The notes beneath the pieces were generated by a model. That model ran no database searches. It worked only from the letters and a program-made list of their open reading frames with translations, and was not told the DNA's origin. Positions 31,101 through 50,780 of a DNA stretch of 64,000 nt are shown one piece after another. The DNA is taken from positions 992,001-1,056,000 of the forward strand of contig CP084166.1 of assembly GCA_021513695.1 (NCBI GenBank), given 5' to 3'. How positions within the stretch are numbered: the stretch's first letter is position 1; each line of letters starts with the position of its first letter. Position numbers and translations under genes: made by a program. This DNA comes from Candidatus Heimdallarchaeum aukensis (lineage in GTDB: Archaea > Asgardarchaeota > Heimdallarchaeia > Heimdallarchaeales > Heimdallarchaeaceae).

Positions 31101-31344
31101 TTTACTTTTTTACGTAAAGTTTTTCGCGCTCTGTCTTGCAAGAGAGAAAACAAGTAAAAGTTTAATCTCTTGAACTCAACCAAGCCATACAATGCTATGA
31201 AGAGGATGAGACAGACATCATACACGAATCGTGGGAATCATAAAGAAGAAAAGAACTAAAAACTCTTTTCTTCACTCCACGAGAGACAAAAAGAAAGAAA
31301 GATTTCCTCCTCCTACAGGAGAGAATTTGTCCTTTCGTTTTTGT

Positions 31345-32802
31345 CTACTGGGACTGCAACCAATGGCTGAGCCCTAGGCAAACAGTGAAATGGGTAGAAC
31401 TGTATCTTTGACCAGTGAGGTAATCAGTGATAGTGTTTCCTTGAGGACTGAAAAGAGCACCAAGGAACTTACGAGCGATATTCATTGCTCCTGTGAGGTC
31501 AGAGTGGAAAGTGTAATTGCAAGAAGAACAATGAACTAAACCTCTTACTGGACGGACAACTTTCCTTCCACAACGAGCACAGTGAGAAGATGTCCCTTTT
31601 TCCTCTATCGTTAATATTCGGTGAGGGTCAAAACCTCTTAATATTAGTGCCCGACGGAGAAGAGTAAGAACAAGGTAAAAATTCCACTGATGAAGTTTCC
31701 TGCGAAACTTACGAGTACTTTTACCTTTCTCTTTTCCTTTCTCCTCGCGAACATGTTTAGGGTAACCTACAACGACGAAAAGGTCATACATTCGCGCATA
31801 GGTCTCTATCGTCTGCACAACCTCACTTACAAATTGGTAAATATAGGCTCGTTTAACGTTTCTATATCTTCTTCGAAGAAGACTAAGAAAACGATAAACT
31901 TGATGTTTTTTACCCGACTGGTCGTTTAAAGCTGCTTTTCTCTGAAGACGGGAAAGTTTGACTTTATATCGATGGTTGACTCTATTCCACTGTTTGGTAT
32001 GCCAGAATTTTATCTCCTTACTTGTTAATTTCTTTTTAGGGGTTAGTAACACTCCTGCAGCAGGAATGTTTATCCCTAGATCTATTCCCAGCACAGCTGG
32101 GGGGAGAGAAGAAGAATTCTCTTCTTTAGGAGGATAAAAAGAAGAAGGAAGAACTCTTAGTTGGAAATACACCCACCATTCATGTGTAGAACGTTTATAT
32201 CTTAGTTCTAAACTTTTCACCCTCCCTTTTTTTAACTCTTTCTGGTGGAAAGTGCTCATCTCTAAAGGTAACCATAACTTCTGATGATAGGAGGTGTTTC
32301 TTCTCCACGTATCTAACGAGTCTCTTATCCCCACCCACCAACGAGTGAGAGTGTTATTCTTCTCTTTAGGTAAATGGACGAGAACGAACCTCTTTGCATT
32401 AATTAGTTGTCTTCTCACTCTCTTTATTGGAGGACGAGTAGAACTGGGTTTATAACCTTGTTCGTATAATTGCACAGCTATATCTCTACATTCTTGAAAT
32501 TCGTTGTGGGAACAATAAGGGAACATTTTCTTCAGGTCGTGAGGAACAGTCTTTCTTCTCTCTTCTTCTTTAACTTTTGAAGTCGTTAGCGTCAATTCAT
32601 CTAGTTTTCCTCTATGAACTCTTATTTTCCCTTTTTTAGTTTTAGCACATATTTTTCTTCTGTTGTGATGAATTATTCTCACATACTTCTCTATTATCCT
32701 CGTGTCTCTCCCCGTTATTCTCCTTAACCTTTCCTTTTTCCTCGTCGTCAACACCTCATTCTTTATTCTCACTTTCAAGGTTTTGACGACGTCCTCCACC
32801 AT
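31345..32802 (-). CDS. tnpB: TnpB (OrfB) RNA-guided endonuclease-like protein
   Basis: RuvC-I LGIDLGINIPAAG, RuvC-II Glu in TIEEKGTSSHC, zinc finger CARCG...CSSCN and RuvC-III HSDLTGAMNIA. The ORF is 485 aa and uninterrupted. Confidence 0.85.
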   Translation of the reverse strand: MVEDVVKTLKVRIKNEVLTTRKKERLRRITGRDTRIIEKYVRIIHHNRRKICAKTKKGKIRVHRGKLDELTLTTSKVKEEERRKTVPHDLKKMFPYCSHNEFQECRDIAVQLYEQGYKPSSTRPPIKRVRRQLINAKRFVLVHLPKEKNNTLTRWWVGIRDSLDTWRRNTSYHQKLWLPLEMSTFHQKELKKGRVKSLELRYKRSTHEWWVYFQLRVLPSSFYPPKEENSSSLPPAVLGIDLGINIPAAGVLLTPKKKLTSKEIKFWHTKQWNRVNHRYKVKLSRLQRKAALNDQSGKKHQVYRFLSLLRRRYRNVKRAYIYQFVSEVVQTIETYARMYDLFVVVGYPKHVREEKGKEKGKSTRKFRRKLHQWNFYLVLTLLRRALILRGFDPHRILTIEEKGTSSHCARCGRKVVRPVRGLVHCSSCNYTFHSDLTGAMNIARKFLGALFSPQGNTITDYLTGQRYSSTHFTVCLGLSHWLQSQ

Positions 32803-32871
32803 TCTTTTCCTTCCTTCTTTTCTTTTTCTGTTTATTTTTTCTCTTGTTTTTTCTTCTTATCTTTTTTTATT

Positions 32872-32899
32872 CTACTTTTTTTCCCTATAAAAACCCCTC
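32872..32899 (-). promoter_or_regulatory. IS-borne promoter block (minus strand gaggggtttttatagggaaaaaaagtag)
   Basis: Near-identical to 4908-4936 of copy 1, with a TATA-like tttttata. Confidence 0.4.
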
Positions 32900-32973
32900 T
32901 CCTCTTTCTCCTCTCCTTTCTTCTCTTTTTTCTCTCCTTCTTCCTCAACAACTGTAAATTACGTGAAAAATAG

Positions 32974-34553
32974 ACACATGGTGACACAGGAAAAATAAAA
33001 TGGAAATTTAAAACTGGGGGATCAATAAGAGCATCTCCAGCTCTAGGAGATCTTAACAATGATGGCTATCTGGATATAGTTATAGGGTCTTCTGATTCTT
33101 ATTACTATGCATTTAATGGAAGAACTAGGACAATCCTCTGGACACTCAAGACAGAACTAATAATAGGGGGAACTGCTCCAACATTGGCAGACGTTGATGG
33201 GGATAACGAACTAGATGTCCTACTTAATGGTAAAAATGTGTATCTTGTTGGAGGAAGAAAGGGCAATTTAATCTCTATTTATAATCAAAATGAAGAGGTT
33301 GGAACTTCTATCACTGTTGGTGATTTGGATAATGATGGCAGTTTTGAGATGATATATGGTTCCAAAAGTGGAAACGTTTTTTGTTATACGATTACTAATT
33401 CTGATAAAACAAGTTATAGGATCTATTGGCAGGGGGATGGTGGTGATTTCTTCAATTCTGGAAACAGTTTTACAATAGATAAAGATGGAGATACTGTTTC
33501 TACTTTCTCTGAAAAAATTATTGGAACAGACCCAGAAAAAAGGATACGGATGGAGATTTTCTTATAGATGGATATGAAATATCTGCTACTAAAACAGACC
33601 CCTTAGTTCAAGATTCAGATAATAATAATATCGGAGACCAGAATGAAGATTTTGATGGTGATGGGTTAACAAACCTAGAAGAATATAAGAAAAAAACAGA
33701 TCCTTTGAGTAGAGACACAGATGAAGATTTTATACCAGATAAAATTGATATTTTCCCAATTTTGTTTCCAGAAGGTTTAATTTATCTCTCTCTATTCTTT
33801 CTTTTATCAATATTAATAGTTTCTACAATAGTAAAAAAGAGAATAGAAAATAAAGGCGATAAAAATGAAAGTCTTATTCTTAAATTTAAAATGAAAAGAA
33901 ATCAAATATTATCAGAGATATCTTGGAAAGGCTCTTATAATAATTACAAAAGTGTTCATTTACAAGCTTTTAGATGGTTTGGAATTTTTGCTATTTCATC
34001 TGCAATAATGATTAATTTTATCATTTATCCACTTTTTAAAACAGAAATTGTTTACCATGATATTGTAAAAACAAGCTATTCTACAGTTATCTATGTTTTA
34101 ATTAATGTTATTTATTTTGCGTTATTTTATTTATTAGGTTCTGGTTTTTACTCGCTAGGGTTTTCAAGTAATGGAGTAACTTTTAGCTATGATTCTATTG
34201 CTACAAACTTGTTTCTTTCTTCTCTTATCATTTTAAGCATTTCTTTCGTAAAAGTATCAATAAACTTAATTTTACTTCCAATTTTAACTTATTTACTTAC
34301 ATCTGCTTTCATCACACTTTATAATATACGAAAGGAAAAGATTACTAATAGTAATAATCTCTTAAACTTTGTTTTCATCCTTTTTCCAATATCTTTTCTA
34401 TCTCTTTTATGGTATCAAACGCTTTCTTTCTATTTTGCTATTCCACAACAAATTTTGAGGATAATTTCTTTGATAACAGGAGTGTTAATGTTTCTTCTAG
34501 CACTAGAAATCTTTACATTATCTACTCTGAATTCTCGTGAAAAAACAAAATAA
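32974..34553 (+). pseudogene. FG-GAP/beta-propeller + thrombospondin-type-3-like repeat + polytopic membrane domain gene, 5'-truncated and frameshifted
   Basis: The frame opens at 32974 in mid-repeat (GKIKWKFKTGGSIRASPALGDLNNDGYLDIVIGS; further FG-GAP-like units LADVDGDNELDVLL and VGDLDNDGSFEMIYGS). Reading shifts from frame 1 to frame 0 at the A6 run 33536-33541. Downstream come DTDGDFLIDGYE, DFDGDGLTNLEEY and DTDEDFIPD (Ca-binding TSP3-like repeats) and about 8 TM helices. Confidence 0.65.
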
Positions 34554-34990
34554 AGAGCATTTGAAATCTAACAATTCTAGTACTCCTTTCTAATTTTTTT
34601 ATCTCACATAGATAATAGTTAGTTGTAATGTTTGAAAACAGGTTGTGAATAAAGTAATAATAGCTCCTCTGTCATTGATTATGCAATAAGTATAATCTTC
34701 CATATTCTTGACATTACATCTTATCTCTCAAATATGATTATCTATATGAACTCATTTCTTTAAACAAACTATCTTCATTTGCTTATTTTTGTAAATAGTA
34801 CATAATTTCCTATTATTAAGACAACAAAAATCTCCTAAAAAGTTCGGTAATACATGATTGAAAGAAGTCGATTGATGGAGAAATCCTGGTGATTAACTTC
34901 TTGAGAGATACTAATTAATTATTTTCGAGCAAATGCTCAAGAAAATGATTATTCTTCTTGGAACTCTTTAAACTACAAGACAGAGTAATT

Positions 34991-36031
34991 TTATGCTCTT
35001 TCACATTTATTTTTTTCATTATTTTCTACAATACATAGTTCTAGAAGTATATCATACGTTTTTATCATCTCTCTCATAGTTTTTAACATTATTGGGTAAA
35101 GACGCATAATACTATGATTCTTTGTATATTTATAATCTGAATGATAATTAGGATAACGCGAAGCACCAACATGTTTTTCCAAATTCATGCTTAAAATAAC
35201 TATATATGCAAACAGTAGTATAAGATAAAGATAACTTTCTATTTGTACTAACCAATCTTCTTTCTGAATTTGTGTGATAAATTCTTCTCTCAACATTCTT
35301 CGCTCATCAGTTTGCAATTTGATATTATATTCTTGTTCGATTGTTTGAATGACATAGTCTGTTATGCTAATGAACTCTTCTTTCACAATTTTATCAAAAT
35401 TTTCTTTTCTTATGGATTTTATTCCTTTCCTAAATAATGAAAACAGCTTGTTGTATTTAATTAATATTTCCTTTAATGTAGTGTGTTCAAGATACAGAGT
35501 TTCTTCTGATTTCCTTTTTTGCTCATAATCACTCAAATATTTATCAATTGCTTCTATAATGCTTAAAAATCCTTCTCTTTGGTTATCATTAGAATAATCA
35601 GCTAAAGATTCATAGAGATCTTTTAGTTTTTCGAAGAAGAATTTAGTAAAAGTATGTCCAACTTTTATAAGCCGTTCAGTTTGACACAGTCCAGTAAGTA
35701 GAAGTAGTGATTTTCCTAATTTCTCAACAGATTGTTGGAGGAAGAAAATAGACTGTGCATATAGTTTCTTGTGATATAGAATTTTTGAAGCTCTTAAATC
35801 CTCTTCAGCAGTATCTAACAGTCCTAAAGCTGATATTAAATCTCTCTTTTCTGGTGGGATCTCATACTGTGATCCATATTTTAATTGCCATATTAATTGC
35901 CTTTTGATATCTTCTATATCTGTTTCTTGTAATGCAATTTTGTCATTATTATCATTCATTAAATAGCACTGATGGTTAATATTTAAATAATTAATGGCAA
36001 CTATTATCATAATGCAATAAAAATCGAGCAT
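34991..36031 (-). CDS. HEPN-domain protein
   Basis: ALGLLDTAEEDLRASKILYHKKLYAQSIFFLQQSVEKLGKSLLL matches the first helices of the classic HEPN domain. The C-terminal GASRYPNYH supplies the RYP / R-x4-H motif. The probable start is the internal MNDNNDK. Confidence 0.55.
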   Translation of the reverse strand: MLDFYCIMIIVAINYLNINHQCYLMNDNNDKIALQETDIEDIKRQLIWQLKYGSQYEIPPEKRDLISALGLLDTAEEDLRASKILYHKKLYAQSIFFLQQSVEKLGKSLLLLTGLCQTERLIKVGHTFTKFFFEKLKDLYESLADYSNDNQREGFLSIIEAIDKYLSDYEQKRKSEETLYLEHTTLKEILIKYNKLFSLFRKGIKSIRKENFDKIVKEEFISITDYVIQTIEQEYNIKLQTDERRMLREEFITQIQKEDWLVQIESYLYLILLFAYIVILSMNLEKHVGASRYPNYHSDYKYTKNHSIMRLYPIMLKTMREMIKTYDILLELCIVENNEKNKCERA

Positions 36032-36183
36032 CTGCTCTTTAAAATGAGAAACTATTTTATATTAAAAACTCTTAATTGGTTTTAAAACATGATAATTAAA
36101 GAAAAAAGAATAATTAAATCCTTCTATTTAACTATAAGGAGGAGTAAATAAACATAAAAAAATTGTGAGTAGAAGGGAAATAT

Positions 36184-37419
36184 ATGTCATTTAATTTTGA
36201 AGTTAAAAATACAATTGCATCCTTAAGGCAATCAAGGTTGAAGCTTGGCAATGTAGAAATAGAAACACCAAATTATATAATGACACATATTGAAACTAGA
36301 CGACTTACTACAGGGTATAATCTTGTTGGGAGTCGTGAGCCTAACCCAAAACTGAATGAATTAATTAGTGATCATATACCTGATAGATTAACTGCACAAA
36401 AAATATTTGAAAACTCCGATGAAATAGAAAAATTATGTAACAAGCTAGATAACTTGACTAAATCTGATCGGATGAATTTTGTTCAATTTCGTTTGAAGGC
36501 TGGAAATGAAATTAGCAAATATGAATTATGTCAAATTGTTAGGTTGCAGTCTGATATGAACAAATTTTCCATTATAACAATACCTGATCCTACTTGTTCA
36601 TATAATAACTCTTGGATTGATTCTATGGAAGCAGCTCTCTATGAGGCTAAGGTTTCACAAGAAGTTGGAACATCGGAACTATTTATGCCTACTGTTTCGC
36701 TTGCTCAGCCTTTATTGGATGTGGAAAAGAAAATTTCGTGGTTAATAGATAAGCAAGTTCCATCCATTGGATTAAGAGCACACGGGCCACATTTTCCAGC
36801 TACTTTGCACAAATCAACAAATCTGATTACACAATCAGATAATCCGATTTGGATTCATCTGTTTGACTTATCCAAAAAATATAAGAATGTGTCCCAACTG
36901 CATTTGGCACCTTTGACAAGTGTTGATACTATTTCCTTGAAAAAAAAACATGGGTATAGCAGCAGCAAGAAAAATATTATGGATGGTTTATTGCCAACAC
37001 CAGAGAATATATCTTTAGAACCAACTGCTAGGGAAATAGAAGAACAAAAGGTCAGAGAGATAAAGCGTAGTCAACGGTTTTTGTTTGAGCAATTAGCTTT
37101 AGGTTACATTTCTATAAATGAGCGGACTAAATGGATTGGTCATGAACTTTCTTGTACTTGTCCCATTTGTAAAAAGACAAAAGATATAGATACCTTTAGG
37201 ATTTATCTCTCAACACATGATAAAAACTCACTTCTACAAGTGCATGAATATACTGGTTTTAACCAGGAAATGTTGGCAATTAGAAAAAATATTAGGGATA
37301 ATGATATCTCAGAGTATTTTAGACAAAAAATATTAGTAAAACGACATAGACGCAAACTATCTAAAAGATATCCTGAGCTTGAAAGGTTTATTAATCCGCC
37401 TTTAGATAGTTACTTCTGA
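36184..37419 (+). CDS. tRNA-guanine-transglycosylase superfamily protein, stand-alone (DpdA-like / ArcTGT catalytic-domain-like)
   Basis: The N-terminus FEVKNTIASLRQSRLKLGNVEIETPNYIM parallels ArcTGT FEIKARDGAGRIGKL...IETPAIMPV. The zinc motif SCTCPICKK...LLQVHEY parallels CSCPVCSK...LLALHNL (CxCxxC...H). There are no PUA or C-terminal tRNA-binding domains (411 aa). Confidence 0.6.
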   Translation: MSFNFEVKNTIASLRQSRLKLGNVEIETPNYIMTHIETRRLTTGYNLVGSREPNPKLNELISDHIPDRLTAQKIFENSDEIEKLCNKLDNLTKSDRMNFVQFRLKAGNEISKYELCQIVRLQSDMNKFSIITIPDPTCSYNNSWIDSMEAALYEAKVSQEVGTSELFMPTVSLAQPLLDVEKKISWLIDKQVPSIGLRAHGPHFPATLHKSTNLITQSDNPIWIHLFDLSKKYKNVSQLHLAPLTSVDTISLKKKHGYSSSKKNIMDGLLPTPENISLEPTAREIEEQKVREIKRSQRFLFEQLALGYISINERTKWIGHELSCTCPICKKTKDIDTFRIYLSTHDKNSLLQVHEYTGFNQEMLAIRKNIRDNDISEYFRQKILVKRHRRKLSKRYPELERFINPPLDSYF

Positions 37420-37447
37420 GATATTTATCCAAGAAAAGGTGATATAA

Positions 37448-38059
37448 ATGAATCAAAAAGCGACAAAAAATATGTCGGAAGAAGAAAATAAAATGATAAA
37501 AAAATGGATCTATTTAATGTTAGCTGCAGATAACAATAGTTCAATCAAAGGAAAAGTTAGAATAACTAAAGAATTCTTTTTGATTACCAAGCAGTTAGCT
37601 CCTGAAGTATTTAAGGCAGCTCAATTCTATCCTTATCACTTTGGGCCTTATAGTACTCGTTTTGCTGTTTGTGTTAACGAACTGATTAAAAGTAATCATA
37701 TTAATATATTGTATAAAAGTGGAGATTATCATTATGAGTTGTCAAAAAAAGGTTTAGTTGAAGCTAAAAAATATTTGAAAACAATCCCTAAGAAAGAAAA
37801 ACAAGTAATTGATGATATTAAGAAAAAAAGTAAGTCTCAATCTTTAAAATCAATGTTAAAAGAAATTTACGAAAAATATCCTAAGTATACAGTTCGTTCT
37901 GTTATTAAAGCAGATCTTGATACTAAAAAAGTAAACTTAGATTCTGTAGAAAAAGTAGATGATAGTTCAGGGTTTGTTTCAAGTGATATGAAACATGAAC
38001 GTGACATCGTCTTGAAAGGTGAAGCTGCAAAAAGATTTCTAGAAATAATCTCAAAGTGA
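37448..38059 (+). CDS. Putative antitoxin, SocA/Panacea (DUF4065)-like
   Basis: IKKWIYLMLAAD...ITKEFFLITKQL...FYPYHFGPYSTRF resembles the KLxYL ... GPxS core of the Panacea domain. Its stop lies 7 nt before the GNAT toxin start. Confidence 0.4.
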   Translation: MNQKATKNMSEEENKMIKKWIYLMLAADNNSSIKGKVRITKEFFLITKQLAPEVFKAAQFYPYHFGPYSTRFAVCVNELIKSNHINILYKSGDYHYELSKKGLVEAKKYLKTIPKKEKQVIDDIKKKSKSQSLKSMLKEIYEKYPKYTVRSVIKADLDTKKVNLDSVEKVDDSSGFVSSDMKHERDIVLKGEAAKRFLEIISK

Positions 38060-38066
38060 TACATCA

Positions 38067-38570
38067 ATGACTAGTCATGAAGTAGAGTATAAAATTGAGA
38101 AACTAAATATATCTCATACTCTATTAGACTTTGATTGTGGTGATGAAAACGTTAATGAGTATTTTAATCAGAGAAGCTATGAAGAAGTTGAATTAGGTAA
38201 TGCTCAAATTTATGTGTTTATACTTGTGAATACAAATGACCTCATAGGTTTCTATACGCTTTCAATGAAATCTGTTCGTTTTAACTATGAAGGAAGAGAA
38301 TATGATCAACCTGTGTGTTTGCTTGGGCAAATTGGAGTAAATAAAATTTTCCAAAATAAAGGTTGGGGAACAATATTAATTAAAGATGCAAAGAAGAGAT
38401 GTAAAAAAATCTCAGAAGATATTGGAAGCATTGGTTTATTATTGGAAACATATAAAGAAGAATTAGTGAACGGGTTTTTCAAGAAACTTGGTTTCGAATA
38501 TGTTGAACATCACAAAATGAAAAACCGAGGTACAAGATATAGATTGTTTTGCAAACATGAACATGAATAG
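38067..38570 (+). CDS. GNAT-family acetyltransferase toxin (TacT/AtaT/KacT-like)
   Basis: LDFDCGDENVNEYFNQRS...IYVFIL...LIGFYTLSMKSV...PVCLLGQIGVNKIFQNKGWGTILI...FFKKLGFE matches the F-x-CG-x-x-x-L-x-x-x-L ... GFY-x-L ... G-x-G architecture of tRNA-acetylating TA toxins. Confidence 0.7.
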   Translation: MTSHEVEYKIEKLNISHTLLDFDCGDENVNEYFNQRSYEEVELGNAQIYVFILVNTNDLIGFYTLSMKSVRFNYEGREYDQPVCLLGQIGVNKIFQNKGWGTILIKDAKKRCKKISEDIGSIGLLLETYKEELVNGFFKKLGFEYVEHHKMKNRGTRYRLFCKHEHE

Positions 38571-38624
38571 AAAAAGGAGAAATGGATATAAAACAGCTTA
38601 CTCTATTTAAAGCTTAAAGCTATT

Positions 38625-38666
38625 TTTGAATATTATTCTTTACTTTTTTCTAGCTCTAATCCTCTC
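38625..38666. repeat. 42-nt IS-leader-like repeat, copy A
   Basis: tttgaatattattctttacttttttctagctctaatcctctc is identical at 39 of 42 positions to 41084-41125, in the same orientation. Confidence 0.85.
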
Positions 38667-38901
38667 TTCTTGTTTAATTACTGTAAGTATAATTACTTGT
38701 TCGAGTGTAAGATTGTTGAAGTTCAGTTCAGTACCTAAATCATCCAAAAAAATAGTTATTTAATAGGAATTTATATTTAACTCGAAAAAATCCCATTTTT
38801 AATATTTCTTTATGAAAGTATTTTCAATAAACGGAAAGTTTGCTACAAGAACTCGAAGAGTTTTCTATTACTATTGCAATCCTTCTTTTTTAAAATGTAA
38901 T

Positions 38902-39354
38902 TTATTGTATAGAATCTATGAACCTCTTTAAATCCTCTTCTGGTAAATCAGTATATTTCTTATATCTCTTGAATTTTTTACTGAAGAATTTTATATCAAC
39001 ATAAATTTGTATTTTCTCTTTGCCTTCAATTTGTTTTCTGTCTGTTACAGGAAAAGTTGCCCAATATAACTTGTATTCTTTTGAATGCTTAAGTTCATAT
39101 TGTTGTTGTTTTGGTCTTATCTTTCCTTGATACTCAACACTATCAATTATCATTTTTATGTCCAACAGAAACATGAGTGTAGAAGCAGTTCCAGCATTAA
39201 TTATGTAAAGTCCCCATTCTTTTGCTTGTGGGTTGAATATTGGTCCAGATAAGTTTAGCGAAGCTCTTTTTGGTCTAAAGAAGGATAGGTATACTGTTAC
39301 AACTGACAGAAAAATAGATATTGTAGAGAATATTAATGAGACTACTTCTGTCAT
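38902..39354 (-). CDS. Small N-terminally membrane-anchored protein, unknown function
   Basis: The N-terminus VVSLIFSTISIFLSVVTVYLSFF is a TM helix. It is co-oriented with, and downstream of, the 447-aa gene. Confidence 0.4.
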   Translation of the reverse strand: MTEVVSLIFSTISIFLSVVTVYLSFFRPKRASLNLSGPIFNPQAKEWGLYIINAGTASTLMFLLDIKMIIDSVEYQGKIRPKQQQYELKHSKEYKLYWATFPVTDRKQIEGKEKIQIYVDIKFFSKKFKRYKKYTDLPEEDLKRFIDSIQ

Positions 39355-39589
39355 AAATACTAATACACATTATCAATTAATTAACAGTTCGGTATATTGT
39401 TTCACCCATGGCACATTCACCCCAAGATAAAATACTGAACCATTAGATGTTGGATCAATTGGTAAGGAGATCCTAAAGATTAAAGAGTAGTTTGATTTAG
39501 AGATTATTACTATAAATAATACTTATGTTGCTTTGTTTTGTAATGTTAAAAAACAAGTGATAAGCCAAATTTAAGGTTACTAAGTCTAA

Positions 39590-40933
39590 TTATTCCTCAT
39601 GAAGTAAAGGTGTTTCTAAAAGGACATTTGTTAAGTCGATATTGTTAGGGTTTATTTTTTTTGGATAAACAAAAGAGAAGTGGCAGACGTAAGATTTGTT
39701 GTTTCTTATTATTTTGATCCAAACATTTTCTGGTTTTTCCATTATTATTCTTAACATCCATGATGTATTTTCTTCTGATACTCTAAGCAAGGCATAAAGA
39801 GTTCTTTTTTTTAATTCTAGTGTCTTATACTTTTCGAATTTTTCTTTTAACTGTTCTGCGTTCCCCCAAAAAAGGTTGGGAAAAACTTTTTCATCTTTAT
39901 CAAATACTATTGTTATCTCTTTTATTTTATTGTACTCTGAAATATCTTTCAAGATTTCCTTCTTTTCATCAATAGGGATTCTTTGTTGAATACCTCTAGA
40001 TTTTCTTAAAATTTGATCGAGGAGAAACCATATTGAATTGTCCATATATTTAATAAACGAATTAATTTCCATTTTAAATGCAACTTCTGTTTTTTGTATT
40101 TCTACATTACCTTTTTTATTTATCCAACCGTTTATTTTAAAATAAGAAAAACGAGGATCGACATATTCGAAAGATTGTTTGGGTGGAAAGGTTTTTCCAT
40201 TTTTTCTTGCCAAAGTTATTGCATCTTCTATCCATAATTTGAAATTGGTATTTGCTGACCTTGCGGGAATTTTGTCAATAATAACCCATATCTCATCGTT
40301 ATTGAAATCCAGAACTTTTTTACCACTATGTGTAACAGTATTACGTAAGTATAGAAACACACTGAATGCAAGTGATGGATTGATATATTTATCTGAATAG
40401 GGCTCGTAATGTCTAATTAGTTCATCAAAAATACGTTCATACCTATATCGTTTTAATTCGGGAAGATTATTTAAATACGCTTCTGTGAATCTTGAAGTTA
40501 GTTCCAAAAGTTCCAGACCAGCTGAAACATATGTTTCAAAGAGACATATAAAAAGGAACTTTATAGTTGGTATTTTAGTCCAATCAAATCGTATTTGATA
40601 ATACTCTATTTGGTCTCTTACTAATTGGAAGTACGCAAGTCTATATTTAATGCTGTTTAATGTTTCAATATACCTTCCTTTTTTCACTAATTCATTAATA
40701 TGAAAAACTAGTAAACTGTAGTCTCTTGATTCGTTATGTGCTTCCAGATAGTATGAAAACATACTCAAAACGCCAAGACTTGTATCAAGAACATGCCGAG
40801 AAATACTAATTTCTTTTTTTTCTTTTTTTTCTTTTAACGAATTAAAAAACTCATATTCGTTAAGCAAAATTTTTAACAAAAGTTCATGAGATTCTTTACT
40901 TTCTATTTCTTGCTTATCCTTATTTTGATTCAT
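39590..40933 (-). CDS. Hypothetical protein with HEPN-type RNxxxH motif (Abi-like candidate)
   Basis: 447 aa and alpha-helical. FLYLRNTVTHSGKK fits the R-N-x-x-x-H catalytic motif of Abi2/AbiD-F-type HEPN RNases. No other recognisable motif was found. Confidence 0.4.
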   Translation of the reverse strand: MNQNKDKQEIESKESHELLLKILLNEYEFFNSLKEKKEKKEISISRHVLDTSLGVLSMFSYYLEAHNESRDYSLLVFHINELVKKGRYIETLNSIKYRLAYFQLVRDQIEYYQIRFDWTKIPTIKFLFICLFETYVSAGLELLELTSRFTEAYLNNLPELKRYRYERIFDELIRHYEPYSDKYINPSLAFSVFLYLRNTVTHSGKKVLDFNNDEIWVIIDKIPARSANTNFKLWIEDAITLARKNGKTFPPKQSFEYVDPRFSYFKINGWINKKGNVEIQKTEVAFKMEINSFIKYMDNSIWFLLDQILRKSRGIQQRIPIDEKKEILKDISEYNKIKEITIVFDKDEKVFPNLFWGNAEQLKEKFEKYKTLELKKRTLYALLRVSEENTSWMLRIIMEKPENVWIKIIRNNKSYVCHFSFVYPKKINPNNIDLTNVLLETPLLHEE

Positions 40934-41083
40934 TTGTTATTAATATTATTTTATAACAAAATAAAAAAGTTTAGTTAAATATTACTGTGCAATTCTTCCT
41001 CTATTTTGATAAATAAATGAACTAGAATAATTTTCTTTCCAAGAATAAACTGCCTTTAAGGATAGTTAATAAGTAGTTAAAGG

Positions 41084-41280
41084 TTTGAATATTATCCTTT
41101 ACTTTTTTCCAGCTCTAACCCTCTCCCCTCTCCCATCTTTACAATCCTTCTTTCCCCTGAAATTATTTTTTTTGTTTCCTTTTTCTATATTCTCTTTTCT
41201 TTCTAACCAACCTTATACTCTTTTTCTTTACCTTTGTTCTTGTTATTGCTTTTGTTACTGTTTTTAGTCCTAGTTCTGTA
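41084..41280. repeat. IS-leader-like repeat copy B plus about 150 nt pyrimidine-rich tract (solo left-end remnant, minus orientation)
   Basis: 41084-41125 matches copy A at 39/42 positions. Its reverse complement gagagggttagagctggaaaaaagtaaagg aligns with the IS promoter block gagggttttaaatagggaaaaaaagtaag. The adjacent CT-rich tract mirrors the purine-rich leaders of both tnpB elements. ORF 41085..41267 is low-complexity and not credible. Confidence 0.6.
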
Positions 41281-41472
41281 CTATTAGTTCAGTCTCTTTT
41301 TTAGGATAATCTGTGGATAGTAATTCTTCAAGAAATTAGAGGAAAAATATGAAATCAATAATAAACTTTCTCTAAATTGTCTTAAGGTCTTCTTCTAGTT
41401 ATAACCTCCTTACAAGAAGATGCTTTACTTTGCAACAAAATGAAAAATAAACTAAAGAAACTATTCATAGGG

Positions 41473-41480
41473 TTTAAATA
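41473..41480 (+). promoter_or_regulatory. TATA-like box tttaaata about 25 nt upstream of the methyltransferase ATG
   Basis: The context is gggtttaaatac, and ATG 41501 follows 20 nt after the box. Confidence 0.4.
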
Positions 41481-41500
41481 CTTATTTCTCGTATAGGCTA

Positions 41501-42637
41501 ATGATGGAAATAAACAAAATTTATCTTAAAGATTGTATAGAAGGTATGAAGGAACTTCCTGAAGATAGCATAGATTTAATATTTGCAGATCCACCATATA
41601 ATCTTCAATTGAAAAATGAATTATATCGACCTAATCAGTCATTAGTGGATGCTGTAAATGATGAATGGGATAAATTTTCATCATTTGAAGAGTACGATGA
41701 TTTTACAAAAAAGTGGTTATCAGAATGTAGGAGGGTGTTAAAAAAAACAGGTTCTATATGGGTAATAGGGTCGTATCACAATATATTTAGAATCGGAAAA
41801 ATAATGCAAGATTTAGGTTTCTGGATATTAAATGATATCATTTGGATAAAAACAAACCCTATGCCAAATTTTAGAGGTACTAGATTTAATAATGCACATG
41901 AAACTCTGATTTGGGCTTCGAAAAATGAAAAAGCTAAACCTACTTTTCATTATAAAGCTATGAAGGTATTTAATAATGATAAACAAATGCGAAGTGATTG
42001 GTATATTCCAATTTGTATAGGAAAAGAAAGGTTGAAATTAAACGGAAAAAAATTACATTCTACACAAAAACCTGAAGCATTGCTATATAGAATAATAATA
42101 TCAACATCAAATGTAAATGATATAGTGCTTGATCCTTTTATGGGTTCAGGTACTACAGCTGCAGTAGCAAAGAAACTAAGAAGGAATTTTATTGGTTTTG
42201 AAACAAATGAAATATATGTAAAAGCAGCAAGAGAGAGAGTTGTTAAAGTCATACCCATGGATCCTGACATTTTGGATTATAAAGTGGAAAAAAAACCACC
42301 AAAAGTTCCTTTTGGTACTTTAGTAGAACATAATTATATTAAAGCTGGAGATTGGCTTTATTCAAAAGATATGAGATATAAAGCAATAATAAAAGCAAAT
42401 GGGTCAATTGAATATCAAGGTAAAAACGGTTCTATTCATAAAATTAGTGCTCAAATTTTAAATAAAAAAGCAAATAATGGATGGGATTTTTGGTATGTAA
42501 AAGAAAACGATAATCTTGTATCGATTGATACTATTAGAAGAAATTATGCAAGTAAAAACATGAATTATATGAATGATGAAATAGATATGAGAAATAAAAA
42601 AGTAACAGACAAACTTTTAACTAATTACTTGGAATAA
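41501..42637 (+). CDS. Beta-class N6-adenine DNA methyltransferase, CcrM / M.HinfI family (likely GANTC)
   Basis: Motif IV IFADPPYNL precedes motif I VLDPFMGSGTTAAVA (beta-class order), and HSTQKPEALL is present. The C-terminal VPFGTLVEHNYIKAGDWLYS...NGSIEYQGKNGSIHKISAQIL...NGWDFWYV parallels the CcrM-specific C-terminal domain. Confidence 0.9.
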   Translation: MMEINKIYLKDCIEGMKELPEDSIDLIFADPPYNLQLKNELYRPNQSLVDAVNDEWDKFSSFEEYDDFTKKWLSECRRVLKKTGSIWVIGSYHNIFRIGKIMQDLGFWILNDIIWIKTNPMPNFRGTRFNNAHETLIWASKNEKAKPTFHYKAMKVFNNDKQMRSDWYIPICIGKERLKLNGKKLHSTQKPEALLYRIIISTSNVNDIVLDPFMGSGTTAAVAKKLRRNFIGFETNEIYVKAARERVVKVIPMDPDILDYKVEKKPPKVPFGTLVEHNYIKAGDWLYSKDMRYKAIIKANGSIEYQGKNGSIHKISAQILNKKANNGWDFWYVKENDNLVSIDTIRRNYASKNMNYMNDEIDMRNKKVTDKLLTNYLE

Positions 42638-42642
42638 TCTTC

Positions 42643-43512
42643 GTGCTTACTAATTATCTTCCCTATGAAGTTTTTAAAAGAATATTAACAAAGACAATCT
42701 TTCAAAATGCTAAAATAAGTTTATTAGAAAAAGTTGCTAAATATCCTTCAAGATATACAGGTTTATTTAGGCCTACCAAACCTAAATTAAAATTAATCCA
42801 GAACATTACTCAATCAAATGAAATTCTATTTGGCGATGCTTTTGAGATCATAATTAATGAATATTTGAATAGATTAGGTTTCTCTCCAATTAAAAAAAAT
42901 TATTCCTATAATGGAAATGACTTAATGTTTGATCAGATTGTAGGAAAAGAAAATACTATTATTTACATAGAACAAAAAATAAGAGATGATCATGATTCAA
43001 CAAAAAAAAGAGGTCAAATAGAAAATTTTGAGAAAAAGGGTGAATTATTATTGAAACTATATCCTGATTTCAAAATTACTGGTATAATGTATTTTATAGA
43101 CCCAAATTTAAAGAAAAATCGAAGATATTATATGCAAGAATTACAAAGAATAAGTACTCAATTTAATTTTGAAACTCATCTCTTTTATGGAAAAGAGTTT
43201 TTTGAATGGATAGGAAAAGATGAAATCTGGTTAGAAATAACAAGCTATTTATCAAAGTGGAAAGAAGAGATACCTGATTTTCCCACAATTAATTTTGATG
43301 AAAATCCCGAAGAATCTTTTGAGGAAATCAAGCATCTACAACCTAATTTACTGATAAAGCTTCTAAGAAATGATGCAATATGTAAGGAGATTTTTCCCGA
43401 ATTGTTCCCGGAAAAAACGACATTAAATCTACTTCTGGAATACTATATTCATGAAAGAGAAAAAAATAAGACTAATACAATGGTTATTGAACATTTAAAA
43501 AAAGTGTTGTGA
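42643..43512 (+). CDS. Putative type II restriction endonuclease partner (PD-(D/E)xK-like)
   Basis: It starts 5 nt after the methyltransferase stop. FDQIVGKENTIIYIEQKIRD gives a D-x13-E-x-K arrangement. The assignment rests mainly on context. Confidence 0.5.
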   Translation: MLTNYLPYEVFKRILTKTIFQNAKISLLEKVAKYPSRYTGLFRPTKPKLKLIQNITQSNEILFGDAFEIIINEYLNRLGFSPIKKNYSYNGNDLMFDQIVGKENTIIYIEQKIRDDHDSTKKRGQIENFEKKGELLLKLYPDFKITGIMYFIDPNLKKNRRYYMQELQRISTQFNFETHLFYGKEFFEWIGKDEIWLEITSYLSKWKEEIPDFPTINFDENPEESFEEIKHLQPNLLIKLLRNDAICKEIFPELFPEKTTLNLLLEYYIHEREKNKTNTMVIEHLKKVL

Positions 43513-44322
43513 AAAAAAATCTAAAATCACAAAAAAGATCTATATAATTGTACGATTTTTTGTTCAAAAAAAAACTATCACCGTTTGATTGACATGTTAT
43601 AAAAATAGTTTCTGAAGAAAAACCTTTACATCCATTAACTCTCAGATGCTTTATACCATTATTTTGAAATAGATACTACATGCTTGAATTAAAATGAATT
43701 TCTGGACTAGTTGATTTTCCTTTCTTAATTATAAATTATATAATTTTCCTAATTGAATTGAGAGATAATTTTTCTTTTTCAAACCAAGCATGATCTATTA
43801 TAGGAGGTTTTAAACGGAGAAGATTCAAACTTTGGATATATATTCTACATATATTATAAATATTGTTTGATATTCATCATTTGAGTTTCTCAATAAAAGA
43901 TTATTCCATATTTTAGTTTCTAGTTTGAAGATTATGAATTATTTAATAAATGTCTTAAATTCGGGATACCTTTCTTTCATATTTTCCTCAGAATCATGTA
44001 ATGGAATTTGTAGTGTTCCTTTTACTAATATTCTATATTCCTCAAGTTTAAGAATATGATTTGATTATAGCAGTGTGCCATTACTTGTTATGTTTGTTGT
44101 TATTTTTTTCGATAAATGTAGAGATTCTGGTAAAGAAATAATGTTTTCAGTTATGAATTGTATATTATCATGAAATCTAACCTTCTTAATTTAACTCAAA
44201 TTAATTAAGTAGTAAAGATAATAAAAGAAGGTATCTAAATGTTTATTGCGGAGATTTATTATAGGGTTTTTAATTTTCATCTCCCACATCGAATAATACG
44301 CATTTATCAATAAATCCTTATA

Positions 44323-45342
44323 TTAATTAGAGCAATATGAAGTTTTATTTGTGAAAATTTCAGGATCATCTAGTTCTCTCAATCTTTTAAGTGTAACACT
44401 TTTCCATTTATCATAAAAATCAACTAAAATACCTTCTTTTTCCTTTAATGTTGGTTTTCCTGTATCATCATCCATAATAAATTCAAATCCGTAATCAATC
44501 TTAAAATTAAATTGATCTGTATGCAAAACTCTTTCATGAGGAAACTTAATATCGTTATCCAAAGATGAACAAAAATTATAATGTCGAACTTCAATATGAA
44601 TTGATGAGTTTGAATATAAACCAAGCCAGTCCATTATATTTTTCTTTGTTGATTGAGGATTATATCTATTTGCTTTCGGTGTTGTAGTACAAATAATAAA
44701 ATTGCCATTTCTTATATTCTCCTTTTCAAATTGTTTTACTAACCAATTTAATGTTTTATAGTGTCGCTTATTATTAACTAAATTTACACCAAGATATCTG
44801 TCCACAATCATTACTTCCTTTGCAAATCTGAATATCTTTTTGATAAATCTTGAATGCACTTCTGTTAAATTATTTAATTCTGCTAAGTTTAATGATGTAT
44901 TCTGTATTTTATTGTAGAAATCTATTTCTGTAATTAATTCCTCTGATACATAGCTACTACTCAATTTTCCAATTTCACACTTATTTCTACAATTATTGTA
45001 AGGAAGTATTATCCAATCTGGATTTTCTCTGCTTTGAATTTCACAATAAGCTATACATTCATCTTTTTTTTTCTTTCCTTCAATTTTAATTTCAATTATT
45101 CTTCTATTATTTTGCATATTCGAAAGCATTTCTTCTATGATGAGTCTTTCTTCTATTGGTATAAGTGAAAGGGTTTTTGATTTAATAGGTAAACTAAAAC
45201 CTTCTGGTTTTAGAAGTATACCGTTTTTTCTAAGGGAAATCAATAAAGAAACTAATATTTTAGAACGATACATAATAAGCGTAGAATTTTCAGAATTGTC
45301 ATCTAAAATTTTAGGAGATAATACAAATGTCTGTACCGTCAT
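44323..45342 (-). CDS. Hypothetical protein, fourth gene of the four-gene operon
   Basis: A 339-aa uninterrupted ORF. Its ATG overlaps the ATPase stop (ATGA at 45339-45342). No confident motif was found. Confidence 0.5.
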   Translation of the reverse strand: MTVQTFVLSPKILDDNSENSTLIMYRSKILVSLLISLRKNGILLKPEGFSLPIKSKTLSLIPIEERLIIEEMLSNMQNNRRIIEIKIEGKKKKDECIAYCEIQSRENPDWIILPYNNCRNKCEIGKLSSSYVSEELITEIDFYNKIQNTSLNLAELNNLTEVHSRFIKKIFRFAKEVMIVDRYLGVNLVNNKRHYKTLNWLVKQFEKENIRNGNFIICTTTPKANRYNPQSTKKNIMDWLGLYSNSSIHIEVRHYNFCSSLDNDIKFPHERVLHTDQFNFKIDYGFEFIMDDDTGKPTLKEKEGILVDFYDKWKSVTLKRLRELDDPEIFTNKTSYCSN

Positions 45343-47249
45343 TCAAATAGCTCCTTATAACTTAGATCAAAGAAATCATCTGGCCATTCATTTATAAAAT
45401 TACCATGTTTGTCAAATTCGATAGGAACTATATTAGCTCCTAGTTTTGTTTTTTCAACAAATATAATTGATATAAGTTTTGGACTTATTTTCTTTTTCCT
45501 AATGAGTTTTTTGATTCGTAGAATTAATTGTTGACTATGAGTTTCAATTATAAATTGTTTTGATAAATTCCTTTTAACATGTTCAACAAAAAATTCTCCC
45601 AATTCAGCTTGCAATCTTGGATTAAGATGTATCTCTGGTTGTTCTATTAAAAGAATTTCATTTGGTTTATTTGACATTATCGTTTGTACAAGAATGGGGA
45701 GAACCTGACTCACACCAAATCCAATATCCGGTAATGCCACCGGATATTTTGTGATATTATCTTCGAATTTCAAGGAATATACCCCTGATAGTTTGTCTTT
45801 ATCTGCTGTATATGAGACTGTGTAACCGATTTTTAGTTTTTTCAACCAATTATTTAGTTCATTTATTTTATTTTTATATGAATAGATAAAATCTGCTGTT
45901 TTTGATCCTGAAACACCTACATTAATAGGTCTACTCCCTCCAAATATGTAATATCGAGATGGTTTATCTCTAAGAGGACCAATAAAAGTAATGCTCTTCA
46001 TCAATTCAATGAATTGATTTCTATTCTCTTCAGTCACGTCATAATCAAAATATAAATTCTTTTTTCCATGTTCAAGTTTAAAAAACGTGTTGATTTTAAG
46101 TAATTCACCTTTAATTGGATTACCAACAAATTCAATAGATAAATTATGATGAATAAACTTAATTAATTTGTTAATTAGATCTGTTTCTATCTCCGATGGG
46201 TCTTTAAACATAATAATTCTAAATAATTTCTCAATTTTCATATTAATTGATTCTTCAATTAGAATCCTAAAATCATGATCGATTAAAATATCATCTTTTA
46301 TTTCATTTAAACCAATTTCAACCTTTTTGCAAATTTTTTCAATTATTTTATCTTTTTTTAACAGAAAAAATTTGTTTTTTTCTAATTCTCTTCTAATTTT
46401 TTCTACTATATTTTTAATTTCAATTTTTTTCGCTTGACTATTTTCCTGATAAATTTTCAATATAGTTTCTATAGGAACTTTAATATTAATCGTAGGAATT
46501 TTATCGTTATCAAAATGAATCTTCTTTTCAATTTTTTCTTCTATATCAAAGACATCAATTTTAAATTTCTCTTCATATGCAGAATAAGAGATTATAAATG
46601 GTGTATCAATGTTTTCAACAATTGTGATTTTCTTGTATCCTCCAGATATTGACTCTCTCAAAAACGGTAAAAGAATCATCGGTATAACTCTTTCTGTACT
46701 TATTTTTGAAAGAGAACAAGTATATTTTATCCGCTGATAAATCCTAGAATTTTCTGTTTTGCAATATACTAATTTTGCTGAAATTAATGATTTTTCAATC
46801 TTTTTGCCATAATTTCTAGATATTCCCCATATTATTTTATCTAAAAGAATGTAAGGTCTCTCTTCAATCTTTTTTGAAATGTATGTTAAGTTGATTTTGA
46901 ATTTTTTAAAAATCCTTTCCTTGTATGGTGAAATATGAAGATAATCTGAGGATCGCCACTGTAACCCAATTTCAACTCTTTTTCTAGTATCATGACCAAA
47001 AACAATTTCTTCGAAAGGTCCAATATCAACATAAGTCCCTTGATGTAGAAGAACATTATTTGGGTCATTGTCTTCTATAGTTTGTTTTAAGGCTAAAAGT
47101 GATTTCAAAATAGATGATTTTCCACTACTATTTTCTCCAAATATCAGTGTAATCGGTTTACATGGTATTCTAGAGCCCTTTTTTCCAAAGGCTTTAAAAT
47201 TTCTTAAATAAATTTCAGTTAACATGAACAAACACCAAGTTTCTTTCAT
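45339..47249 (-). CDS. ABC/SMC-like AAA ATPase (AAA_15/AAA_21-type, as in OLD/Septu/PARIS-class defence ATPases)
   Basis: The N-terminus is LTEIYLRNFKAFG...ITLIFGENSSGKSSILKSL (Walker A). About 400 aa of helical insert follow, then LLIEQPEIHLNPRLQ (Walker B / D-loop) and IIETHSQQL (H-loop). The probable start is ATG at 47225 (MLTEIY). Confidence 0.8.
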   Translation of the reverse strand: MKETWCLFMLTEIYLRNFKAFGKKGSRIPCKPITLIFGENSSGKSSILKSLLALKQTIEDNDPNNVLLHQGTYVDIGPFEEIVFGHDTRKRVEIGLQWRSSDYLHISPYKERIFKKFKINLTYISKKIEERPYILLDKIIWGISRNYGKKIEKSLISAKLVYCKTENSRIYQRIKYTCSLSKISTERVIPMILLPFLRESISGGYKKITIVENIDTPFIISYSAYEEKFKIDVFDIEEKIEKKIHFDNDKIPTINIKVPIETILKIYQENSQAKKIEIKNIVEKIRRELEKNKFFLLKKDKIIEKICKKVEIGLNEIKDDILIDHDFRILIEESINMKIEKLFRIIMFKDPSEIETDLINKLIKFIHHNLSIEFVGNPIKGELLKINTFFKLEHGKKNLYFDYDVTEENRNQFIELMKSITFIGPLRDKPSRYYIFGGSRPINVGVSGSKTADFIYSYKNKINELNNWLKKLKIGYTVSYTADKDKLSGVYSLKFEDNITKYPVALPDIGFGVSQVLPILVQTIMSNKPNEILLIEQPEIHLNPRLQAELGEFFVEHVKRNLSKQFIIETHSQQLILRIKKLIRKKKISPKLISIIFVEKTKLGANIVPIEFDKHGNFINEWPDDFFDLSYKELFE

Positions 47250-47317
47250 TCACACTCTTGATGAATTCTTTACAAATTTATGTAATAAAAATAAAAACTT
47301 TTCTGGAATATCTATGT

Positions 47318-50300
47318 TTAATTTTCACTAAGATATTTTATTATTTTAGGAAGTAGGAAAACATTTTTTCTTAATGTTGAAAAACTTAATGCTTCTCCTA
47401 GAAGTGTGTGAACTTGTTTAGGTATTTTTCCAAACATTGGATGACTAACTACATATCCATAGGTAAATGATTTGAAATTCCCACTTTCTATTATTACACG
47501 CATTGGCTCTTCCAACAAGCTCATATCACCAAAGTAAATGCTTGATAATGGTGATGATAATGCTCTTAAACGTTCAATAGTTGCTTTTTCAATATCTTCA
47601 CTCAAAAAAATATCACTATCTTCTATTATATCAAGAGTTATTAATAAATATGAATCACCAGCAAATATAATTGGTGGACTTAAAAGTTTACTAAATTTTT
47701 TTGCTAATGAAAATGCATTATTTGTTGAGTTGATAAAATGATATAAGCTTGGATATTTTCTACTTTTTTCATCTTTTTTTACATTTCTTCCATAATAAGT
47801 TCTGACCATCTTTTCTAAGTAGTTTAATCCTTTATTTATTGTGTATAAGTTTCGAGGTTTTTCCAGATAATTAAGTATTTCTTGTTTATCTGTTTTGTCA
47901 TAAGCTTTTACTGTTACACGAAAACCTTTTGCTATTTGTTGATTAGTGACTTTATAGAATAGATAAGAAGGTATCGTCATATCATTCCATCTACCTGCTT
48001 CATTAAATGTAAGTATAAATTCAGGAGAGGGATATAATCTGAAATGGTTTAATGCTGTTTTTATAGATGGAAAATAATTTTTCAAAAAATCATCTAAATA
48101 GATATTATCAACTGAAAATGCTCTTTTACTAACTCTTCCAAATAGACTGAATTTTCTTTTAGTTCTTTCCGAAATCTTGCTTCTGCTAAAAACTGGTAGG
48201 ACATGTTCATTATTGTTGATTAGTATATCTCTAATAAAACTTCTTAACTGATGAAATTTGATATTTTGATCTTTTAGAGTGGCATTTTTGTTCAAAGCAG
48301 AAATCATAGACACTAATCTTGGCTTCAAATCTGTTTCTTCTCCTCTCATCCTTTTAATTACTTGCCTAAAATATTCTAGATTGATCATAGAATCGAAATA
48401 AGTTGTTGAGCCATAGTCTGTTTTTAAGGGGAAAGGAGGAAGGATAATTAAAATTTCATGCCATGAATATGTAGTTCCAAATGCTAATGAAGAGGTTCCT
48501 ACTATATTTTTTTTAGGTGTTTCTTCTATTAATAATGTGTCACGAGAATCGTGAGTAATAGAAACTGCATCATAATTGTTTAAATGGAGGTATTCTACTA
48601 ATGAATCTACAAACTGTTTATTGTTAACATAAAAAATTACTTTACCCTCTTGTAAATATTTTTCAAATGATTTTTTTCTATTGTCAATTCGTGATTTTTT
48701 TACAAGCTTGTCTAATATTTCAAAAATTTTTTTAAAATTTATTTCCTCTTCATATTTACCCTCACAAATAAATGATGCTGCACAATAATCAATATTGAAA
48801 TTTAAGAGATATCTCAGAAAAATACCTTTAATCGGAGTATTAATTATTTTAAATTCCTCTGGTTCTTGAATGTCTTCATTAAAATTAGTTATTTGAAATT
48901 GTGTCATCCATTTTTTTGAATTTGGATCAACTAATGTGTTCAACATGGAAATTACTAATTTCATACTTGTGATAGATGCATCAGTAATTACAAAGCGAGG
49001 AACATTTATGTTATTATTTACCATTAATCGATTCCTTGCTTCTATTAGTAAATCAATAAAATTTTTTGCAACTGTTGGTCCAGAATTAGTTAATTCATCA
49101 AAGATGAACATATATGTCTTTGTGAATAGTAATTTCCAATTGTATGATTGTTTTAGAAAATAATCTAAAGCTTGGGAAGATACTAATATAACTTTTTGTC
49201 CTTGTTTCTCTAGTGCTTTTTTCAATCGATTTCCTGTTTCACTGAAAATTGTTTCATACCCCTTAAGTGTTATTGGATCTCTTATTAACTCTTTTTCTCT
49301 TTTACCAATAATTAATTCTAAATGGACATTTTTTTCTATATCATTTTTGATTAATCTTTGAATTTTATCTTTAGTTTGTATTAAGGTTGTAATTCTTGGA
49401 CAGAAATACAGAATAGTAAAGTTTTTTTTAGTTTTTGCAAGCTTTTTAATATAATTTGCAATCACATAATTTTTTCCAACACCTTGAGATGAACCATTTA
49501 TTATTATATTATAACAATCATTGGTTAATAATTTTAGGAAGTTCTTCTCATGTTCTTTTCTTACATTTTCTATTTCGTTTCTAGTAACACTCTGTCTTTT
49601 TACGATAGAAGGTTGAATCTTCTCTTTAGTTTCAGGATAAGCTTCAATAAATTCTGTTTTTTCATCCTTCAAAATTATTTTTAACTCCTCTCCTCTAGTT
49701 CCTTCAAAAAAATACATTCTTTTATTGTTTTTTTCTTTTATTCTCATCGATATTTTTCCACTCATAAATAATTCAAAAATTCGTCTTCTTTCAAAATCTT
49801 CCAATATATATTCTTTCTTTTTACCAAATTCTGTTTCCACTATAGTACTAGGAATCAAGTTACATAGAAATCGTAATATTTTCCTTAAATCGGTTTCAGA
49901 TTTAATATGAAAAGAAGATATAGCTCCAGGTAAAACTATTTGAACTTCAATCTCACTGTTATAATTTTGAGTTTCGTTATAATATAATTGTGCATAGGAG
50001 AATACTTTTAAGTATTTCTGGAGAGCTGTTGCAATTCTGTAAAAATCTCTTGCAGGAATCTTTTTGTTCTTATGTAAATTTAGTTTTCTTAGTTTTTCCT
50101 TTGAAAAATCTTCGACAATTAATTGTTCAATATAATCTTGAAGTAATCGCTCTTTCGTCATATTTACAAAAAATATATATGATTTAATATCGCCAATACA
50201 TAAGAACTCGATTTGGTTCATTTCATAATTAAAGGCTTCCTCTTGATTGTTAGATGTTTTCTTTCTAATGATTATAAAATCAGGTTTTTTTTCCCTAAAT

Positions 50301-50779: not shown

Positions 50780-50780
50780 T

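Follow-up and report, generated by a model that had tools for sequence, protein, structure and literature searches.

Two 42-nt direct repeats in the genome of Candidatus Heimdallarchaeum aukensis bracket a gene for a 447-aa protein and a gene for a 150-aa protein, which raises the question of how the repeats arose and what the genes between them do. The locus lies in a 64-kb stretch of contig CP084166.1 (hereafter the window; 29.8% G+C), whose proteins include Gtr1/RagA-type GTPases, as suits an Asgard archaeon, and whose two tnpB genes belong to insertion sequences (ISs). An earlier note, made from the sequence alone, derived the repeats from the IS leader and took the genes for an RNase and its membrane partner, equipped with a captured IS promoter or carried as a mobile cassette. 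Our analysis supports a different reading, in which the 447-aa protein probably represents a rare and so far unnamed family of HEPN-domain proteins, and the repeats are most simply explained as the scar of an old rearrangement that joined a conserved and a variable block of DNA.

The repeats themselves, called copy A and copy B (Table 1), are as the earlier note gave them in coordinates, in shared orientation, and in differing at 3 of 42 positions. The copies are 39/42 identical and offset by 2,459 nt on the same strand, and at each of the differing positions copy A has T where copy B has C. Shuffling predicts 0 matches for such a 42-mer pair, and an independent Logan assembly of SRR15988954 carries both copies with the same three differences. 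A gapped comparison gains approximately 6 nt (TTAAAG) on the left, and on the right the likeness is gone by about 15 nt. Copy A lies 55 nt past the stop codon of a GNAT gene and 236 nt beyond the stop of the 150-aa gene, whereas copy B precedes the ATG of the minus-strand 447-aa gene by 150 nt. No third copy with up to 12 mismatches occurs in the window plus about 180 kb of other loci (246 kb), and exact matches were found neither for a 26-nt repeat core in JGI metagenomes nor for a 20-nt core in IMG/VR. A scan of reference-genome contigs with TTAGAGCTRGAAAAAAGTAA returned 10 bacterial chance matches only, H. aukensis being evidently absent or masked there. The repeats are a genuine duplication of an intergenic stretch that is unique in the DNA searched.

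Comparison with related strains reveals where the DNA around the repeats varies. Exact look-up located the GNAT protein in the sister species H. endolithica (CP084167.1) as well as in four other Logan assemblies. Between 32978, which is exactly the left-end boundary of the tnpB2 IS, and 39178, H. endolithica is 94-99.6% identical to the window. It retains copy A (41/42 identical) and the 512 nt to its right, including the last 83 codons (residues 68-150) of the truncated 150-aa gene. Homology then ends after CATG and is followed by a 385-nt miniature inverted-repeat transposable element (MITE) that has IS-family end motifs and is 82% identical to window positions 22182-22533. After the MITE come 134 nt that match the window again and, beyond these, different genes; the flank starts again at 54332. 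A JGI contig (Ga0366836_1006437, our locus L037) matches positions 41345-48636 at 99.7% and is joined there to unrelated DNA. Copy B is absent from both H. endolithica and this contig. Because a truncated remnant of the 150-aa gene remains, the H. endolithica state is derived, having arisen by MITE-associated deletion or replacement of the segment 39179-41313.

Copy A therefore belongs to the conserved left block, where it comes after the GNAT operon, and copy B sits in the variable part upstream of the 447-aa gene. The breakpoints fall at 39178, 41314, and 41345, and none coincides with a repeat. We consider it probable that the repeats are neither the ends of a presently varying unit nor a transplanted IS promoter. 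The two-species comparison also shows cleanly how a MITE-associated deletion has reshaped a defense island. Separately, the left block (32978-39178) is 94-99.6% identical between the species compared with 92% for the HAD hydrolase gene in the right flank (54332-55136), so a block of defense genes may have been exchanged recently between Heimdallarchaeum species, judging from this one comparison gene.

The open reading frame (ORF) that the earlier note placed downstream of copy B, with its HEPN-like sequence LRNTVTHSG, is present and identical to hypothetical protein K9W45_04240 of H. aukensis. Searches of Pfam, NCBIfam, and PADLOC with the 447-aa protein gave no match even at E 10, and searches of PHROGs and of PDB sequences with this protein and the 150-aa protein likewise found none. 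An exhaustive phmmer search of 1.84 billion representative proteins uncovered 32 remote relatives of the 447-aa protein. The best is 36% identical over its full length, and most are 20-30% identical over residues 45-310. A word-indexed search with the family profile recovered 3 proteins. Nearly all relatives are metagenome singletons: one comes from a DPANN archaeon (Ca. Ainarchaeum) and the remainder from unclassified contigs of 24-63% G+C. One of 27 relatives touches PF18730 (E 0.012), and hhalign found no match between the family and the Pfam-HEPN protein encoded nearby.

Across 27 aligned sequences that are 19-36% identical, only M1, E133, R197, and H202 never vary. R197 and H202 form an RNxxVH motif (RNTVTH in the H. 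aukensis protein), which has the Rx4-6H spacing of HEPN proteins. With the family alignment, AlphaFold2 models the protein at a predicted local distance difference test score of 84, compared to 38 from the single sequence. The model comprises a helical N-terminal domain, a beta-rich middle domain containing a beta-barrel (approximately residues 205-290), and a C-terminal alpha/beta domain (approximately residues 320-447) that is common only to the protein and its closest homolog. The helical domain is an all-alpha up-down bundle of the HEPN type. The earlier note had named a fold unrelated to HEPN as a refutation; the structure model gave a HEPN-like fold. The HEPN reading is supported by the invariant E133 and the R197/H202 pair of the RNxxxH motif in distant homologs and by the position of the gene.

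That position is in a strain-variable defense island that spans about 39.2-54.3 kb between conserved flanks. Neighbors in the window include the Pfam HEPN protein, a PDC-M19A-like protein paired with a GNAT protein, an HpyAIV-type type II restriction-modification pair, an NsnB/AAA_21 ATPase with DUF3696, and a ResIII helicase. Elsewhere, homologs of the 447-aa gene adjoin an OLD-like ATPase gene, Fic and integrase genes, BrxC/D with a restriction-modification pair and AAA_15/21, or ABC/AAA_21 genes. The GC and third-position GC contents of the 447-aa and 150-aa genes do not depart from those of the surrounding island.

The 447-aa protein is most likely an RNase effector or a toxin of the antiviral or abortive-infection type. 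The R197/H202 dyad is predicted to cleave RNA, and the fused beta-barrel and C-terminal domains would control activity. Because it sits in a defense island of an Asgard archaeon, a lineage close to that of eukaryotes, the protein is a candidate for the catalog of archaeal immune effectors. The useful outcome of the analysis is a rare HEPN family (approximately 30 members among 1.84 billion representatives) that has invariant catalytic-type residues and an unusual fused beta-barrel and is missed by all current profile libraries.

Several points weigh against this overall picture. The scar origin of the repeats is a default explanation: no event has been demonstrated, and no empty site with a single hybrid repeat was seen in the strains compared. 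The uniqueness of the repeat applies to the window, the other loci, and the database scans. The repeat that prompted the finding is itself without a demonstrated role. Furthermore, we know of no member of the 447-aa family with an established RNase activity or phenotype.

Table 1. Positions, in window coordinates, of the features at the repeat locus and of the IS elements used for comparison
Feature	Position	Strand	Basis and remarks
Repeat copy A	38625-38666	+	42 nt; direct sequence comparison
Repeat copy B	41084-41125	+	42 nt; direct sequence comparison
447-aa protein gene	39590-40933	-	ORF; HEPN helical domain, middle beta-barrel, C-terminal domain
150-aa protein gene	38902-39354	-	ORF; no detectable family
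Terminator-like inverted repeat and T-run	39530-39559	-	Just past the 447-aa stop; weak, fold energy not better than shuffles
Purine-rich tract adjoining copy B	41126-41270	-	81% purine on the minus strand
Segment missing in H. endolithica, with the MITE there instead	39179-41313		5' part of 150-aa gene, HEPN gene, copy B, purine tract
Shared non-coding stretch, 134 nt	41314-41447		86% with H. endolithica directly after the MITE; JGI match from 41345
Complete tnpB2 IS (comparison)	31097-32980	-	Multi-copy alignment
Parts of the tnpB2 IS			Left end: terminal motif, purine tract, TATA block (32857-32899), 5' untranslated region; tnpB 31345-32802; right end finishes at 31097
tnpB1 element (comparison)	4798-6208	+	Related left end 4798-4862, block 4908-4950, frameshifted tnpB 4963-6208

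The proposal that the repeats come from an IS leader can be judged against the anatomy of the true leaders. We established the boundaries of the tnpB2 IS by an alignment that included nine further copies from H. endolithica and JGI metagenomes, setting homology against unrelated flanks. Its TnpB (485 aa) belongs to a multi-copy family in both Heimdallarchaeum species. The left end starts with TGTCTATTTTTCACGTAATTTACAGTTGTTGA after a CATG that precedes every copy in the flank, and continues through a tract of 96-100% purine to GGGGTTTTTATAGGGAAAAAAAGTAGAAT, whose TATA box is kept in all copies, and a purine-rich 5' untranslated region. The right end finishes at ...CTTTACGTAAAAAAGTAAATCAT. The earlier note was therefore right that the promoter-containing leader is truly part of the IS, with purine tract and TATA block internal to the left end. 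A Logan contig ending at about 32870 had been considered as an IS boundary and was dropped, as the multi-copy alignment runs the IS to 32980.

Further observations concern the IS family itself. The termini of the tnpB2 IS are imperfect inverted repeats (ATGTGTCTATTTTTCACGTAA versus the reverse-complemented right end, ATGATTTACTTTTTTACGTAA), and in H. aukensis the element lies 34 nt into the ortholog of an H. endolithica gene for a 539-aa FG-GAP protein, at a synteny break. A MITE of approximately 350-385 nt, found at window 22182-22533 (+) and at positions 7106-7490 of locus L030, follows CATG and carries the end motifs of the tnpB2 IS (AGTTGAAATTTTACNTAATTT ... TTTACGTAAAAAAGTATNTNAT); its copies are 82% identical. 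The tnpB1 gene is a pseudogene whose 80 N-terminal codons are in a different frame from its OrfB_IS605/TNB part (5321-6208). No sequence similarity is detectable between the TnpB1 and TnpB2 proteins, yet their leaders (4798-4962 and 32803-32980) align with a score of 73 versus 35±5.5 in shuffles (z 6.8) and share a left end that includes a purine tract and a TATA block with GGGAAAAAAAGTA at its end. Because unrelated TnpB proteins share a similar left end and leader, this similarity suggests that different tnpB lineages may use a common mobilizing or expression module.

Copy B and the purine tract could represent a piece of a tnpB IS left end that now drives the HEPN gene, with copy A as a second remnant, although we regard this capture as unlikely. 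Several observations speak for it. A purine tract followed by a block is an internal feature of the IS left end in the multi-copy alignment, and in the available Heimdallarchaeum DNA such purine-rich non-coding tracts hardly occur elsewhere than in tnpB leaders; the window has only four, of which the tract beside copy B is one. By eye, the repeats and tnpB1 have GAGGGTT and GGAAAAAAGTAA in common. The motif AAAAAAGTARR is over-represented (10 found versus 2 expected); both repeats contain it, as do leader blocks and IS right ends. In addition, the tract, copy B, and the HEPN gene are lost together in both other strains.

Against this, the similarity of the repeats to the leaders does not rise above chance. 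Local alignments of the 42-mers, or of copy B with a 155-nt tract, to both leaders score the same as dinucleotide shuffles (z -1.5 to 1.6), and other window sites match the 42-mers equally well or better, the tnpB leaders not being among the best matches. A left-end profile made with nhmmer from 7 copies that lie outside the window detects tnpB2 at E 4e-21 and tnpB1 weakly at E 0.016, but neither it nor the right-end profile matches either repeat copy, even with filters off and a cutoff of E 10. Where the IS leaders have a spacer with the TATA box (TTTAAATA / TTTTTATA), the repeats have TTAGAGCT and thus lack the box kept in all IS copies. The left-end terminal motif (a T-run and ACGTAATTT after CATG) was not found upstream of the tract; a terminus at 41326-41351 that was convincing by eye was dropped because the position weight matrix ranks this best candidate 113th in the window. 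Copy B is also 150 nt from the ATG, compared with 13-60 nt for the IS blocks, and the tract is less purine-rich than the IS leaders. Consequently, the alignment with the tnpB leader block reported by the earlier note, and the IS origin drawn from it, are not supported; the purine-rich tract at copy B is real, but the evidence speaks against any detectable link between the repeats and the IS leader. The capture reading would imply that some tnpB leader carries TTAGAGCTGG where others have the TATA box. Many copies of the 42-mer, or TAGRGCTGGAAA at the ends of purine tracts, next to tnpB or cassette junctions would revive the readings that involve an IS or a cassette.

It is similarly doubtful that the HEPN RNase and the 150-aa membrane protein form a single operon encoding a toxin together with an antitoxin or sensor. 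The genes are adjacent on the same strand, and the 150-aa protein has the N-terminal transmembrane helix noted earlier (a single hydrophobic helix, residues 1-26). Some homologs of the 447-aa gene (L005 and L007) also have small membrane proteins encoded upstream, but these are unrelated to the 150-aa protein, for which no relatives were found in Pfam, NCBIfam, PADLOC, or PHROGs. The immediate neighbors of eight homologs are unrelated to the 150-aa protein and to one another. The closest homolog (36% identity) begins 9 nt after another gene, and the gene that comes next is on the opposite strand. Moreover, a 235-nt spacer with an inverted repeat and T-run separates the HEPN and 150-aa genes. 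The conserved left block takes in the 3' part of the 150-aa gene, and in H. endolithica this remnant persists without the HEPN gene. The pairing proposed by the earlier note is thus not supported by any homologous locus, and the 150-aa gene is probably a separate transcription unit rather than an obligate partner.

Another rather improbable explanation is that the 42-mer is a regulatory signal used twice, such as a plus-strand oligo-T archaeal terminator or an operator. The plus-strand reading of the repeat contains T-runs (T6), copy A is placed after the GNAT operon where a terminator would be expected, and it is retained in H. endolithica. This conservation is uninformative because the surrounding 3 kb are 99% identical. 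Copy B follows no plus-strand gene, and neither a structure common to the repeats, by folding, nor further copies in the 246 kb were found.

It is even less probable that the repeats serve as att-like or IS-end recombination sites for a 2.46-kb segment that moves as a unit. Integration of a circle, whether site-specific or homologous, would leave direct repeats of this size around accessory genes, as is seen here, and the HEPN gene is strain-specific. The earlier note accordingly proposed a 2.4-kb cassette mobilized by recombination between the repeats and suggested looking for its absence in related strains. Absence was indeed found, but the missing segment ends elsewhere than the repeats: H. 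endolithica retains copy A and part of the 150-aa gene and loses 39179-41313 next to a MITE, and the third strain breaks at 41345. The window contains no tRNA gene, and no integrase family was detected among the approximately 30 ORFs scanned against Pfam (of 49 ORFs of at least 120 aa). Folding of the repeats gave no attC-type hairpin, and no direct repeats surround homologs of the 447-aa gene elsewhere.

Finally, the DNA from about 41345 down to copy A is very unlikely to be a cargo-swapped tnpB IS derivative with a HEPN toxin in place of tnpB, in which the purine tract and copy B would be a degenerate left end and copy A a right-end-like AAAAAAGTAAA terminus. The reason is that neither end profile finds a match there and that the 235 nt separating copy A from the 150-aa gene do not resemble omega-RNA or an IS right end. 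If it were true, such an element would be a transposon-borne defense gene in an Asgard archaeon, and L037, where a related leader (…GGTAGGGCTGGAAAG) precedes another small ORF at this junction of the island, would add a further case. In that contig, a purine-rich tract at 320-520 (-) ends in GGGGGGAGGTAGGGCTGGAAAGAG 35 nt before a 61-aa ORF, to the left of a restriction-modification block shared with the window, and an inverted partial copy lies at 860-900 (+). The leader-like block there was considered as a relative of the copy B block (GAGGGTTAGAGCTGGAAAAAAG), which it resembles, and was set aside because its alignment score is at background level.

We also recorded other features of the region. 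The shared stretch at 41314-41447 lies upstream of a methylase gene, is kept in H. endolithica although the methylase is absent there, and holds a short hairpin (CTTCTTGTAAGGAGG...CTAGAAGAAG). A plus-strand block of three genes (36184-38570) encodes a 411-aa protein whose C-terminus is weakly TGT-like, a 203-aa PDC-M19A/DUF4364-like protein with matches to two PHROGs as well, and the 167-aa GNAT protein; it is kept in both Heimdallarchaeum species and looks like a candidate defense or toxin module itself. A minus-strand block of four genes (44323-53702) encodes a 339-aa protein of no family, a 636-aa NsnB-like AAA_21/DUF3696 ATPase, a 1153-aa ResIII helicase, and a 973-aa protein of no family. 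This block is common to a JGI strain at 99.7% and is probably a further, largely uncharacterized defense system. Farther along are a 300-nt direct repeat of 83% identity (59680-59979 and 60449-60748) and a truncated DUF2804 paralog (188 aa) adjoining the full gene (343 aa). An Rfam scan of 30.5-42 kb gave no relevant match.

The locus can be compared with several known systems. Integron gene cassettes with attC repeats (for example, Vibrio VCRs) have similar direct repeats that separate accessory genes, and integrons are known from archaea. The 42-mers differ in having no imperfect palindrome, no exact GTTRRRY core, and only two copies, and no integron integrase was found in the ORFs scanned, so an attC reading was rejected. 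The left end of the Heimdallarchaeum IS200/IS605-type tnpB elements resembles the copy B locus in that a purine-rich tract leads into a block with GGAAAAAAGTAA at its end, and a gene on that strand lies downstream, whereas the copy B locus is without the terminal motif, TATA box, significant similarity, tnpB, and omega-RNA-like right end of those elements. Adjacent deletions associated with ISs or MITEs are also comparable: in H. endolithica the 385-nt MITE, which has IS-family end motifs, stands exactly where 39179-41313 is missing, and its left end follows CATG as in all other copies. Such a deletion accounts for the absence of the HEPN gene from the sister species, but not for the origin of the 42-nt repeats. 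Among HEPN proteins, the minimal toxins of HEPN-MNT systems (SO_3166, PDB 5yep; 7ae2; HI0074; YutE) have no sequence-level similarity to the 447-aa protein, which lacks an MNT nucleotidyltransferase partner and a Pfam HEPN family match, is three times longer, and carries a fused beta-barrel and C-terminal domain and an extra invariant Glu. The HEPN effector domains of the defense proteins AbiA, Csm6, and Csx1 are among the closest known systems to the 447-aa protein.

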